Below are positions 40,743-47,142 of a stretch of 64,000 nt of DNA, in pieces (position 1 is the stretch's first letter; the number at the start of each line of letters is the position of its first letter). Made by a program: the position numbers and the translations under genes. Location: the NCBI GenBank assembly GCA_045564835.1, contig JBJLGN010000024.1:6265-70264 (forward strand), read 5' to 3'. This DNA is from Dehalococcoidia bacterium (GTDB lineage Bacteria > Chloroflexota > Dehalococcoidia > Lucifugimonadales > GCA-002694895). Below the pieces are notes generated by a model, which ran no database searches, was not told the DNA's origin, and was given only the letters and a program-made list of their open reading frames with translations.

Positions 40743-41942
40743 TCAATGATCATCTGAATTATGCTCTACTGTTGAAATAGAAGCAAAAACCAAGGTTAGC
40801 ATTGAAAATATAAGCCCTTGAATTAGTCCTACGAATAACTCGAGGCCTATAAAAGGAATAATTCCGATCAGCGGTAGTAAAAATGCCATGGCAAATAATA
40901 ATACCTCTCCTGCGAATATATTCCCAAATAATCTAAAAGTAAAACTTAATATCTTGGCAAATTCTCCCACTAATTCTAAAATTCCTACAAAGAAATTTAT
41001 TGGGCCATTTTTAAAATTGATAAATTTGCCCGCATGACCTGTTAATCCTAAATATTTAAATCCCCACCAGTGTATACAGAACATAGCGCAAAGAGCTAAA
41101 GCTAATGTTGTATTCATGTCAGAGTTTGTTCCCCTAAAAAACGGAACCAGAATTCCAACTCTATAGTGATCATCAAAATTCTTTACTCCTAATTCTTTTG
41201 CCTTTATTTCTTTAGCATGTGCAAACTCATGCTCCAGCCAATGATGAGAGCATATTACACTTGCTGATTTTGAATCTTTAGAATGCCCGTATCATGTGAG
41301 TCGGCAAACAGTGATGTGTCCGATGATTTTATCGAATAATCTGTTTTCCCGTATCCAAACATTGTGGACGCAAGTATTCCATTAGTTTTATATACATTGA
41401 ATTTAACATTATGACCCAAGTTATCTTTTTCTTCTTGATGGTGGCAATATTCTTCAGCAGATTCAACTCTTCCTATAGTGCCAGTCCCTGGCAAAACCCC
41501 GATCCAGTTTGACACAACAACAAACAAAAAAATGGTCATTACCAGAGGAAAAAATACTTTTCCTTTCTCATCCCCTGCTATTTTCTTACAGGTGTTGTAC
41601 ATTGCTTCTAATGCAAATTCTATTAAGTTTTGCATTCCTTTGGGTATGATTTTCATATCTTTTGTTGCTTTTCTGGATATGATTGTCAATGCCACAATAG
41701 TAAACATTGACATAAGCAAAGTGTTAGTTAGAGGCGCTATTCAAAAAATCAAATATAAAGCCTTTGGCCTTAAAGTAATATAACGTTTCTGCAGGTATAG
41801 AAATATAAGCAAAGGGTGCGCTAAGAAAACCCAAATCTAGGGCTGTTCCTAAGCCTCCGCCTAAAATTGACACTATGAATAGCGATCCTAAAATAAACGG
41901 ATTTAAAATGATTTTAGATAAGTATGAAAAAATTTTATTCAT
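40743..41942 (-). pseudogene. atpB: ATP synthase subunit a, interrupted by at least 2 frame changes
   Basis: There are three collinear pieces in three frames. The N-terminal piece is 41724-41942. The middle piece is 41255-41719 (TNTLLMSMF..IPKGMQNLIEFA..NWIGVLPG). The C-terminal piece is open from 41291 down to 40743 (..FFRGTNSDMNTTLALAL..RLFGNIFAGE). The junction windows are 41724-41740 (+1) and 41256-41291 (-1 or +2). Confidence 0.8.
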
Positions 41943-41948
41943 TTATAT

Positions 41949-42188
41949 TTAATCAGATTTTAATAACAAATTAACTAAATTATATGTCCCCACCCCAGCA
42001 GTAAATATGCCTAGAAGCAACCCCAGCCACCAAAAAAAAGACTTCTGCTTTTGAGAAAGAAAAAAAAACTCGCTATCCAAGACTCCTAACATTGTCCCTC
42101 CTACTATGCATACAACTACAAACCACCCTATGCCAATCAATTGAAAAGCCAAAACCAACTTCCTAGACCCCAAATTAGCTCTCCTCAA
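41949..42188 (-). CDS. AtpZ/AtpI-like small membrane protein upstream of the atp operon
   Basis: 79 aa with two TM helices, at the position of atpI. It contains in-frame A8 and A9 tracts (42032-42039, 42060-42068). Confidence 0.55.
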   Translation of the reverse strand: MRRANLGSRKLVLAFQLIGIGWFVVVCIVGGTMLGVLDSEFFFLSQKQKSFFWWLGLLLGIFTAGVGTYNLVNLLLKSD

Positions 42189-42238
42189 AACTTTTAAATC
42201 CTATCATATCCATTTAACACGGTCAAACAAATACAATT

Positions 42239-42792
42239 TTAAAAATCGTCTAAATCTAATTCTTCCATAAATTCATCAAAAGCAGACAATTTTAATTCTT
42301 TTTGTTCGGATGATTTTTTATCTTTTGTATCTGCATAGGTTTCTGTTGAGCTTAACTCTTCATCATTCTTGTCTAATTCAAGCCCTGCTTTGTCTAAGCA
42401 CTTTGTCTTCAGCATATATTGGAGCATCGGTTCTTACAGCTAATGCCATAGAGCATCACTTGGTCTAGAATCGATTTCTATCAAATCTCCTTTGAAGTCT
42501 ATCACTATCTTAGCCATAAATGTATCTTCATGATTAACATCCCAGACTACCACATGGTCTAATTTGGCTCCAAGAGATTCGAAATGAATTGCATAAAAGA
42601 TCATGAGTCATAGGGACGTGGTACAGATACATCTTCTAGTTTAAGAGCAATTGCCTCTGCTTCGTTAGTCCCGATCCACATTGGAAGATATCTTTTTGAA
42701 TGCTTCTCCTTAAGAATAACTACTCTTTGGTAATTCATTAGACTAACTCTAATACTGTCTATTACCATTTCGAACATTAAAATACCCAACAT
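42239..42792 (-). pseudogene. DUF151 / bifunctional nuclease-family protein, interrupted by about 4 frame changes
   Basis: The pieces read MFEMVIDSIRVS..YLPMWIGTNEAEAIALKLEDVSVPRP | MTHDL | YAIHFESLGAKLDHVVVWDV..IEIDSRPSDA | MALAVRTDAPIYAEDKVL | DKAGLELDK..., spread over three frames. Confidence 0.75.
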
Positions 42793-42951
42793 TAAATTAG
42801 TAAATTATTCTATCAGTATATTTCATTTTTTTAATATGAACAAGGAACCATCTCGCACGAATTTTTATTACTAAACAAATCAGGTTATAAAATCTGTTGA
42901 TTTTATAATTATTTTACTTATCAACAAATACCAGATTTTTTGATTTTATCA

Positions 42952-44824: not shown

Positions 44825-45509
44825 TAAGCTCCATCTATGTCTTTTTTGATCTGATAAACCAGTATGTTATTAACTACTACAGAAAATATACCCAGCACTA
44901 CTGAGCATAGTATCAAGTATGCTTAAATTTTGATCATCGCCTGTTTGAATTGATTGGAATATAGCCAAAGGAATCGTGCGTGAGACTCCCTCAATATTCC
45001 CGGCAAAGATAATTGTAGCTCCAAATTCTCCTAAGTGCCCTTGCAAAACCTAACAGTATGCCTCCTGAGATTCCAAAGAAAGCTTTCTCTCAAGGTTATT
45101 GTAAAAAACATCTTGATGTTACTAGATCCTAGTGACCTCGCTACTTTTCTCCAGATCTCTATCGACTGACTCTAAAGCTATTATAAATGATCTTGCCATA
45201 AGTGGAAATGAAACTAGTGCGCAAGCTAATATGGCAGCAAATTTTGTAAATACTATCTCTATTCCCATTCCTTCTCAATATTTGACCAACAAACCCGGCA
45301 GGACTGAAAGTTATTAATAGAAAGTATCCCAAGACAACTGGGGGCAAAACCAAGGGTAGTGAAATCATTATATCAGTAACAAATTTTAATGATTTGTGCT
45401 TTCGATCTCGTTATTACCACTGATCGAAGACAAAAATGATAGTGGTATATTAATCAAAGTAGCAATTAATGCTATTTCTAATGTTAATATCAAGAGATTG
45501 GGTTACCAT
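44824..45509 (-). pseudogene. modB: Molybdate ABC transporter permease, interrupted by at least 6 frame changes
   Basis: Reconstruction is colinear with my recollection of E. coli ModB: ..SLPLVLPPVVLGYFLL.. | GIEIVFTKFAAILACALVSFPLMARSFIIALESVDRDLEK | VARSLGSSNIKMFFTITL.. | GISGGILLGFARAL | GEFGATIIFAGNIEGVSRTIPLAI... The stop overlaps the modC ATG (TAATG). Confidence 0.75.
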
Positions 45510-45519
45510 GAATTAAAAA

Positions 45520-46303
45520 TTAAGGGTTACTAAAGCCATATTTTGTAAAAATATTTTGAATCTTTTCATTCTTTTAGCAAAATTCAAGAATTCTTTAACT
45601 TCGTATGAATTTTCTAAAACTACAATTGGGTATTGAATTTCATTATATAAGTTTTCTGAGATGTTTTTTTTGTTATAATTACCCTCATAATTATTAAAAT
45701 CAGTATTGTAAGCAAACACTCCATCTGATAAGTCCCAATCTCATATGATTAACCGCATCTCGTACGTTTTTTGTCTTTACAATTTTTTTCTCAATATCTG
45801 ATAATCACTACCCATATTTTTTAAAGCTTGCATAGTATATTCTCCGGCTGGAGCTAATTCTGGATCTGCTATTGAAATTCTATTTATATTCTCGGACGTA
45901 CCACCAATTCTTTTATATTTTTCTGCATCCCAATTATCTATCCTATCTTTCCACTAGCAAACACTAATTTATTAGAAAGTAAAACATAGTAATCTACAAC
46001 TTTTATGTCTCTATCATTTATAAAATTATAAGGGGACATCCCTGCAGGGAGAAATATCTCAGGACCTGCTCCTCTGTACTTATTTGCGATGCAAGAGTTT
46101 GAGATCCTCCGAAATTTAATATTAGTGAAATGTTATTTTCCTCATAGAATACATCTTTAATTTCCTCTAGAGGTTCTGATAAACTCACAGCAGCAAATAT
46201 TAGTATTTCTTTATCTTCTTTTTGAACAGACAGAGGATAAAATTGACAATACTAAAACAGTTGCCATAATAAGTATAATAAGAGTAAATTTTCTACTAAT
46301 CAA
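45520..46303 (-). pseudogene. modA: Molybdate-binding periplasmic lipoprotein, interrupted by at least 6 frame changes
   Basis: A signal peptide with LSSVC is followed by KEILIFAAVSLSEPLEEIKDVF..LNFGGSQTLASQI | GAGPEIFLPAGMSPYNF..NKLVFAS | KDRIDNW..ISIADPELAPAGEYTMQALKNMG.. | KKIVKTKNVRDAVNHM | ..DGVFAYNTD..IQYPIVVLENS..EFLNFAK | NEKIQNIFTKYGF. Confidence 0.75.
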
Positions 46304-46310
46304 AAGAATT

Positions 46311-47142
46311 ATGAAATCAAATAACGAAAATAATAATTTAAATTATAAATTAACACCAAAACAAATTCAAAAATATAGCCGACACATTGTTATGCCTCAA
46401 ATTGGCAGCATTGGGCAAAGAAGATTGCTGAACTCTAAAGTCCTCATTATTGGAGCAGGTGGGCTAGGATCCCCTGTAAGTATTTACCTTAGCACTTGCT
46501 GGCATAGGAAAGATTGGGATAATCGACATGGATACAGTAGAAATTTCAAACCTCCAAAGGCAAATACTTCACACTGAAAAAGATATTGGTATTAAAAAAA
46601 CAGAATCAGCAAAAAATTCCTTGATTGCTTATAACAGCGACTTGGTTATTGAAACTTTCGATGAGCCTCTCTCTTCGAATAATGCTCTAGAAATATTTTC
46701 AAATTACGACATCATTGTCAATGGCGCAGACAATTTCCCGGCAAGATATTTAGCCAACGATGCAGCTTTTCTTACCAAGCAAGCCCTTAGTTGACGGAAG
46801 CATACTATTATTTGATGGTCAATTGAGTACATACATTCCTAAAAAACGGTTGCTACAGATGCCTTTTTCCCTACTCCTCCCAAACCTGGCGAAGTCCCTA
46901 GCTGCGCTGAAGCTGGTGTTCTTGGAATGCTTCCTGGAATAGTCGGTAGTATACAGGCTACTGAAACAGTTAAACTAATACTGAATATTGGAGAAACTTT
47001 ATCTAACAAACTCTTATTAGTTGATGCCTTAAACATGGAATTTAAAACAATTACATACAAAAAAAATCCTGATTGTGTATTATGTGGCAACAATCCTGCA
47101 GTAAAAGAATTAATTGATTACGAATTCTTTTGCGGGTTATAA
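46311..47142 (+). pseudogene. moeB: MoeB/ThiF-family adenylyltransferase, interrupted by 4 frame changes (each +1)
   Basis: The pieces read ..YSRHIVMPQIGSIGQRRLLNSKVLIIGAGGLGSPVSIYL | ALAGIGKIGIIDMDTVEISNLQRQILH..GADNFPARYLANDAAFLTK | KPLVDGSILLFDGQLSTYIPK | NGCYRCLF | PTPPKPGEVPSCAEAGVLGMLPGIVGSIQATE...CVLCG... The junctions are near 46491, near 46780, at A6 46841-46846 and at T5 46864-46868. Confidence 0.85.

Follow-up and report, generated by a model that had tools for sequence, protein, structure and literature searches.

Why are the open reading frames of a run of neighboring genes broken up between ~41.2 and 47.1 kb of a Dehalococcoidia contig that carries gene-sized reading frames on both sides? 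A preliminary description of the window, by which we mean the whole 64,000-nucleotide stretch of this contig that was analyzed, had counted at least 30 frame disruptions in seven genes, with clean flanks, and favored an uncorrected consensus patch over biology. DNA alignment of window positions 29929-50510 to an intact copy of the locus (contig L001) confirmed the clustering and showed that the breaks are real but the count too low, with 63 indel events amounting to 84 nt, all inside 41288-46864, and none in ~15 kb of flanking sequence. The events had been described as generic indels, and every one of them proved to be an insertion (63 insertions versus 0 deletions, sign test 2e-19), 46 of 1 nt, 14 of 2 nt, two of 3 nt and one of 4 nt. 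The insertion sites are not homopolymers and share no common sequence context, and the breaks are missing from every relative compared.

The genes affected number eight rather than seven, namely atpB, atpZ/I, BFN/DUF151, pyrF, modC, modB, modA and moeB/ThiF, because atpZ/I, thought to be free of obvious breaks, carries four single-base insertions (Table 1). Intergenic DNA is also affected, by six insertion events, five of which fall in the ~120 nt between BFN and pyrF, a density at least as high as that of the genes. The process that made the insertions was therefore blind to coding status.

We compared loci through pairwise blastn projections onto window coordinates, a comparison with relatives that the preliminary description had proposed. 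Ten metagenome contigs have the same gene order with every gene intact, at the lengths listed in Table 1. These relatives include two sequences that matter for the locus, which we call parents A and X. Parent A, the strain of the window itself, is represented by contigs L002, L003 and L001, in which the genes are intact; L002 is essentially identical to parent A, and the same-strain copy is thus unbroken. Parent X is a sister marine Chloroflexota/Dehalococcoidia lineage covered by L091, L092 and L011, again with intact genes. The two parents are ~10% diverged (~90% identical) across the tract and equal in length, with 5521 nt each over 40700-46300, where the window has 5601 nt. Both are found together in marine metagenomes, and near the locus some contigs, L007 and L002 among them, alternate between sequence resembling A and sequence resembling X.

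Substitutions in the same region are as one-sided as the indels. Compared with same-strain L002, the window has the higher-ranked base, in the order C>G>T>A, at 272 sites inside the tract and the lower-ranked base at 2, and outside the tract it differs at ~5 positions in 10 kb. Among the 235 window-private substitutions, read on the window's plus strand, A has changed to G (64), T (56) or C (19), T to C (75) or G (14), and G to C (5), with two in total in the reverse directions. The direction tracks the DNA strand and not the coding strand, as moeB/ThiF lies on the opposite coding strand and yet shows the identical plus-strand substitution matrix, which rules out codon-usage-driven or designed synonymous recoding. 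Of the window-private substitutions, 167 are synonymous and 68 non-synonymous (71% synonymous), 175 of 235 fall on third codon positions, and no stop codon results from any of them. This is natural polymorphism, not noise.

With L091 standing for parent X, the rule that the window takes the higher-ranked base is obeyed at 609 of the 617 sites that discriminate A from X (p = 2e-168), and all six base pairs fit one total order: AC resolves to C (52:2), AG to G (174:1), AT to T (140:2), CG to C (9:1), CT to C (174:3) and GT to G (37:0). When L007 was used as X over 40794-41398, the window had the top-ranked base at 54 of 57 sites. Of the 81 bases that A lacks, 80 are identical to X's, and all 80 that X lacks are identical to A's, so a base always beats a gap. 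Altogether the two parents and the rule account for 6326 of 6340 positions with L091 as X. The 14 left unexplained comprise the eight violating discriminating sites and about six other positions; most of these exceptions adjoin gap pairs, or they may stem from strain-level differences that separate the true parents from our proxy contigs. Only 3-4 bases in 6.3 kb are in neither parent, indicating that the second sequence was essentially error-free. Such absolute directionality and sorting by base rank rule out natural divergence or recombination import as the source of the differences.

The interval first delimited, 41256-46868, does hold the indels, but the altered tract is broader, since directional substitutions run from 40794, in the 3′ part of atpB, to 47091-47098. 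At 40505 and at 47500 the rule no longer holds, which places the true ends within 40506-40794 and 47091-47500. In the flanks the window simply follows parent A. With L007 as X it equals L002 at 538 of 541 sites, the L002 base being the higher-ranked at 279 and the lower-ranked at 259, and with L091 as X it equals A where A is higher-ranked (119 sites) and where A is lower-ranked (106 sites; p = 0.42). The gene in the right flank is 421 aa long.

Table 1. Features of the altered tract and its flanks in window coordinates. Intact lengths are those in the ten syntenic metagenome contigs; for atpB and atpZ/I they are also given as those in the parents.
Feature	Position	Strand	Intact length (aa)	Observation
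Left flank, pure parent A	30057..40505			~5 mismatches to L002, 0 indels; A followed whatever the base rank
atpB (ATP synthase subunit a)	40743..41942	-	398	2 frame-shifting insertions (41288-41289, 41731)
Merged two-parent consensus tract	40794..47098			Higher-ranked of A and X in each column, C>G>T>A>gap
Sub-interval with all 63 insertion events	41288..46864			Each event is half of an offset gap pair, A versus X, with both bases kept
atpZ/I	41949..42213	-	86	4 single-base insertions (42025, 42060, 42081, 42178)
BFN/DUF151 nuclease-like gene	42239..42792	-	182	4 insertions
BFN-pyrF intergenic spacer	42793..42913			5 insertion events, 42851-42912
pyrF (OMP decarboxylase)	42914..43769	-	280	11 insertions
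modC-like ABC ATPase	43784..44834	-	342	14 insertions, 12 frame-shifting
modB-like permease	44835..45509	-	220	9 insertions
modA-like binding protein	45520..46267	-	244	9 insertions
moeB/ThiF	46311..47142	+	275	4 insertions
Right flank, pure parent A	47500..49856			No rank effect

We conclude that the tract is, almost certainly, an in-silico consensus of two aligned intact sequences, and hence an assembly or consensus artifact and not biology. The preliminary description was right in kind when it proposed an artifactual consensus patch and damage that follows a physical or assembly interval instead of function. According to this explanation, the sequence at ~40.8-47.1 kb would not have been read from a single molecule but computed, by collapsing an alignment of two equally long sequences column by column. 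With only two voters, every difference would be a tie, settled by the priority C > G > T > A > gap, an order that would arise from the index order '-ATGC' if the last entry wins. Isolated mismatches between A and X would then become one-directional substitutions, and an aligner with cheap gaps would turn neighboring mismatches into an offset pair of 1-4-nt gaps at which bases of both parents are retained. Keeping both parents' bases at such offset gaps lengthens the consensus by 84 nt and throws eight genes, unbroken in both parents, out of frame. The paired offset gaps are visible in three-way views of A, X and the window. We also simulated the process by Needleman-Wunsch alignment with cheap gaps followed by the merge rule, which gave 5588-5599 nt versus the 5601 nt observed. 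Set against the window, this product shows 34 mismatches and 23 gap columns, and parent A alone 252 mismatches and 80 gaps. The forward simulation thus recovers the tract to about 99%.

These comparisons directly show both parents, the rule, its boundaries and the forward reconstruction; the step responsible, as we infer it, could have been a secondary assembly or merge of contig on contig, or the resolving, at a later stage, of ambiguity codes left by a merge. A bubble-arm contig of ~6.4-7 kb, with ends that lie where A and X differ little or not at all, probably served as the second sequence. Neither direction of the simple A,C,G,T index order, ascending or descending, gives the priority C>G>T>A, and to our knowledge it matches no documented tie-break of any named assembler or tool. 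In the indexed collections, no contig of 50 kb or more encodes the exact AtpF or MBL-fold proteins of the window, and the best match among genome contigs is the sister species contig L011. It belongs to MAG NAT190, a product of contig co-assembly with Minimus2, and has 428 isolated ambiguous positions in blocks at ~4-5% density, showing that consensus-of-contigs steps occur in this data family. The isolated Ns of L011 do not fall on sites that differ between L002 and L007, since L007 is A-like across that stretch, and the second component of L011 is some other lineage. Counting against a Minimus2-type merge, the Minimus2 runs for the TOBG MAGs set a minimum of 95% identity, and A and X share only ~90% over the tract.

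How the ties were settled may have a second answer, to which we lend tentative weight. The source record could have carried IUPAC codes (R, Y, W, M, K, S) from a contig merger and been converted later to fixed bases (R>G, Y>C, W>T, M>C, K>G, S>C), with base-over-gap coming from the merger. The six observed outcomes map one-to-one onto the six two-base IUPAC codes, and the window is free of non-ACGT characters, whereas the Minimus2-co-assembled L011 retains its ambiguous positions. The data, however, cannot separate code conversion from a tie-break within the consensus caller, and we know of no standard tool with that code-to-base mapping.

The form of artifact first suggested, an unpolished gap closure using long or low-quality reads prone to error, would make the indels and substitutions sequencing errors. 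It fits damage that extends over genes and strands within a single physical interval and that all other contigs lack, but it is very improbable given that deletions are absent, that the insertion sites are not homopolymers and that the inserted bases are those of a real sister lineage, with next to none foreign to both parents. Read errors would respect neither codons nor base order, so the mostly synonymous, stop-free and rank-sorted substitutions contradict it as well. Another reading takes the sequence to be a real molecule. Import of X into strain A could have left a heteroduplex repaired mismatch by mismatch with an extreme bias for G/C over A/T, disrupting the genes on the way. The co-occurrence of the parents and the A-like/X-like switching of L007 and L002 speak for such an event, as does the superficial resemblance to GC-biased gene conversion of choices that mostly favor G or C. 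We nevertheless regard it as negligible in probability, as it needs the sequence to change parent some 300 times or more within 6.3 kb, perfectly sorted by nucleotide identity, resolves W and S mismatches by strand (A/T to T and G/C to C on the plus strand), and would inactivate atpB and pyrF. Its insertions would also have to fall only at the offset gap pairs placed by an aligner, when strands of equal length give mismatches and not loops. Moreover, the merged form of the 41731 junction was not found in public metagenome contigs, the junction being unmerged in 3 of 3 hits (only 3 hits). An actual recombination intermediate with strand-aware C>G>T>A repair and filled loops would be an unprecedented form of biased gene conversion, and we give it practically no credence.

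Recent pseudogenization through a localized indel burst, or expression of the broken genes by programmed frameshifting or RNA-level recoding, had been offered in case the sequence was correct, and the motifs between breaks do look intact. Neither survives the finding that the changes are sorted by nucleotide identity on one strand, depend on the alignment and reach intergenic DNA, where the BFN-pyrF spacer is hit at least as densely as the genes and no tie to translation exists; the breaks have no shared context that recoding could use and are not conserved in any relative. An exclusive excess of insertions is opposite to bacterial pseudogene decay, which is reportedly deletion-biased. Another lineage supplied the template for the inserted bases, same-strain L002 is intact, and the bias toward synonymous substitutions shows no relaxed selection, leaving both readings scarcely credible.

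The merged tract carries no biological significance, as the eight genes are intact in both lineages and there is no pseudogenization, indel burst or recoding to infer. About 6.3 kb of the record belongs to no organism and should be replaced with parent-A sequence, equivalent to L002/L003. The features of the tract provide a signature for screening MAG collections, namely insertion-only frameshifts, synonymous-looking substitutions that all climb a single base order, and "private" alleles that all come from a sister lineage. Merged tracts in MAGs raise the number of apparent pseudogenes and bias ANI, GC content and analyses of selection.

Several known systems resemble the tract in part. Unpolished long-read or low-coverage patches in hybrid assemblies also give dense frameshifts in one interval across genes and strands, but their indels are homopolymer-centered and go in both directions and their substitutions are random, whereas the tract has insertions only, templated by a second lineage, and substitutions that respect codons. 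Pseudogene clusters of reductive evolution likewise comprise adjacent genes with multiple frameshifts and still recognizable motifs; the tract differs in having no deletional bias, stop-creating substitutions or relaxed dN/dS, in hitting essential genes and in having an intact same-strain copy. Recombination mosaics and GC-biased gene conversion share with it a bounded tract of sister-lineage alleles and a net AT-to-GC shift, but real imports carry all donor alleles in blocks, while here donor and recipient alternate about every 10 bp by rank and length changes follow the placement of alignment gaps. Inter-strain or inter-species contig merging by overlap-consensus programs (Minimus2/AMOS, CAP3 and Geneious-type) differs from the tract in that conflicts here were resolved to A, C, G or T by a fixed order, base over gap and without ambiguity codes, and in that the parents, at ~90% identity, lie below the usual merge thresholds. 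Such merging is nonetheless alike in overlaying related contigs into one consensus, in limiting the damage to the overlap and in leaving the flanks pure, and a step of this kind, with its ambiguous-base blocks, made the sister MAG NAT190.

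Open reading frames are shattered between ~41.2 and 47.1 kb of the window, where the longest is 154 aa, and gene-sized ORFs tile the remainder. Intact relatives were gathered by an exact-protein look-up using the neighbouring AtpF, which returned ten marine metagenome contigs (L001-L010) that have the same gene order with all genes intact and are colinear with the window at 91-99% DNA identity. Compared with L001 over 29929-50510, the window carries 63 indel events totalling 84 nt, all within 41288-46864 with none in the ~15 kb flanks, and every one is an insertion in the window (63:0); inspection of their context showed that they are not at homopolymers. 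With shattered ORFs set against intact syntenic contigs and indel-free flanks, we conclude that the interval of frame disruption in the preliminary description is real, although its "at least 30" breaks is too low a count. The seven genes it named are all hit, but atpZ/I, for which it saw no obvious break, has 4 events, making eight. Its interval of 41256-46868 does contain every indel, but the altered tract starts earlier, with substitutions from ~40.8 kb.

Intact lengths of the affected genes in contigs L001-L010 and indel events at the same features in the window
Feature	Intact length (aa)	Indel events in window
ThiF/moeB	275	4
modA-like	244	9
modB-like	220	9
modC-like	342	14
pyrF	280	11
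BFN/DUF151	182	4
atpZ/I	86	4
atpB	398	2
Intergenic DNA		6

Substitutions private to the window occur at ~5% from ~40.8 to 47.1 kb, with practically none in other parts. They resemble natural variation under selection: 167 changes are synonymous versus 68 non-synonymous, 175 of 235 fall at codon position 3 and no stop is created. On the window's + strand, however, their direction is absolute (A>G 64, A>T 56, A>C 19, T>C 75, T>G 14, G>C 5), and only 2 changes altogether run in reverse. The asymmetry goes with the DNA strand rather than with the direction of coding, as the oppositely encoded moeB gives the same + strand matrix. All six base pairs fit one total order, C>G>T>A, which suggested a consensus of two sequences with ties settled by fixed base priority and a base beating a gap.

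We examined this merge rule using contigs from both candidate parents. Contig L002 represents the window's own strain, with ~5 mismatches in 10 kb of left flank; inside the tract the window base outranks that of L002 at 272 sites and ranks lower at 2. Over 40794-41398, contig L007 carries the "private" alleles; of the 57 sites here that discriminate L002 from L007, the window has the higher-ranked base at 54. Along the flank, 538 of 541 window bases match L002, whose base is the higher-ranked one at 279 of these and the lower-ranked one at 259. A scan of GTDB species representatives placed the lineage in marine Chloroflexota/Dehalococcoidia and yielded a sister species, L011 (PAHZ01000004.1, MAG NAT190), that shares ~92% identity with the window, covers the whole tract with its genes intact and is ~10% diverged from the window's own strain inside it; a metagenome scan added two contigs of this sister lineage, L091 and L092, both free of Ns. 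Positions were counted over the tract (6340) with L002/L003 as parent A and L091 as parent X. The three sequences agree at 5556 positions. At 609 of the 617 positions where A and X differ, the window has the base of higher rank (p = 2e-168), taking 314 from A and 295 from X. Window bases missing in A number 81, of which 80 are X's base, and all 80 missing in X are A's base, leaving 14 of 6340 positions unexplained by A, X and the rule. With L011 as X, the pair table reads AC>C 52:2, AG>G 174:1, AT>T 140:2, CG>C 9:1, CT>C 174:3 and GT>G 37:0, with no base-rank preference in the flanks.

The frameshifts can be accounted for in the same way. Over 40700-46300, A and X are equal in length (5521 nt each) and the window is 5601 nt. 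In three-way views each insertion relative to A is paired, a few bases off, with an insertion relative to X, as in A = TTA-AGGCAC, X = TTAGAG-CGC and window = TTAGAGGCGC. The alignment behind the merge had turned neighbouring mismatches into such offset gap pairs, at which both bases are kept because a base beats a gap. A forward simulation, in which A and X were globally aligned with cheap gaps (+1/-1/-1 or +1/-3/-2/-2) and then merged by the rule, gave 5588-5599 nt with 34 mismatches and 23 gap columns against the window, compared with 252 mismatches and 80 gaps for A alone and 324 and 80 for X alone; the extra length did not arise under standard gap-averse scoring. The simulation confirms that the insertions originate from offset gap pairs.

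The left boundary lies between 40505, where the rule does not yet apply, and 40794, where it does; the right boundary lies between 47091, where the rule still applies, and 47500, where it no longer does, giving a tract of 6.3-7.0 kb. Both ends sit where A and X differ little or not at all (left, 128 bp; right, 199 and 197 bp), which fits an X-lineage contig starting and stopping at graph branch points. Other assemblies (L004, L005, L007 and L002) stumble at this locus too. L004 and L005, two independent assemblies of a lineage that shares 98.8% identity with the window, stop at ~41500 in atpB, within 1 bp of each other, marking a recurrent breakpoint where co-occurring lineages diverge. L007 (GCA_045564815.1, JBJLGO010000016.1), aligned to 29936-41398, is a mosaic that arose either by natural recombination or by chimeric assembly. 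Its divergence from the window is ~10% over 30.0-34.5 kb and almost nil over 34.75-40.75 kb; at ~40.75 kb it changes from A-like to X-like sequence, and it stays X-like from 40794 to the contig end at 41398. L002 is identical to lineage X over window 46318-46596 and then diverges from the window; its terminal 369 bp (positions 1-369) do not align to the window, and the gene called at that end is a 201-aa ThiF+Secretin fusion. Another strain switch or chimera at the locus is the probable explanation.

The tract is not biological. Four readings that would make it so, namely pseudogenisation, a burst of indels, recoding and a genuine recombination mosaic, are each contradicted by the features tested: insertions outnumber deletions 63:0, intergenic DNA is hit too, a second lineage templates the inserted bases, bases are sorted by identity on a single strand, and the pattern depends on where alignment gaps are placed. 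The proposal of an artefactual consensus patch is borne out, the rule fitting 609 of 617 A-X sites, but the suggestion that error-prone reads were its cause fails, with insertions lying away from homopolymers and only 3-4 bases in 6.3 kb coming from neither parent, which shows that the second sequence was a contig with practically no errors rather than a noisy read. Public metagenome contigs were also searched with one degenerate pattern covering the A-type, X-type or merged junction at 41731. The three contigs matched, a small sample, are all of the unmerged, in-frame X type and none is merged, consistent with a merge artefact.

A separate A8 run lies at 21082-21089, in a TPR gene on the + strand (20844-21540). 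Each of the six sister contigs (L094-L099) has A7 here, and over 6.5 kb L094 matches the window at 100% apart from this difference. With the additional A, a TPR-repeat gene of 231 aa is broken into two ORFs, 90 and 154 aa long. Unlike the insertions of the merged tract, this is a single homopolymer +1, and it may reflect either an error in sequencing or assembly or genuine variation between strains.

The base priority could have come from the merger or from a subsequent step in which ambiguity codes were resolved. For MAG NAT190, MEGAHIT assembly came first, and contigs from many samples were then co-assembled with Minimus2 (PMC5769542). Projected on window 34942-51797, its contig L011 carries 428 isolated Ns, probably ambiguity codes, in blocks of ~4-5% density, with ~22 per 500 bp on either side of 41.0-48.5 kb and few within it. 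Based on this blockwise density, the GTDB representative itself looks like a consensus of more than one lineage. The signature of the tract is clean and can be screened for in quality control of MAG collections, and the co-assembly and N blocks of NAT190 indicate that consensus-of-contigs steps leave visible scars in such data.
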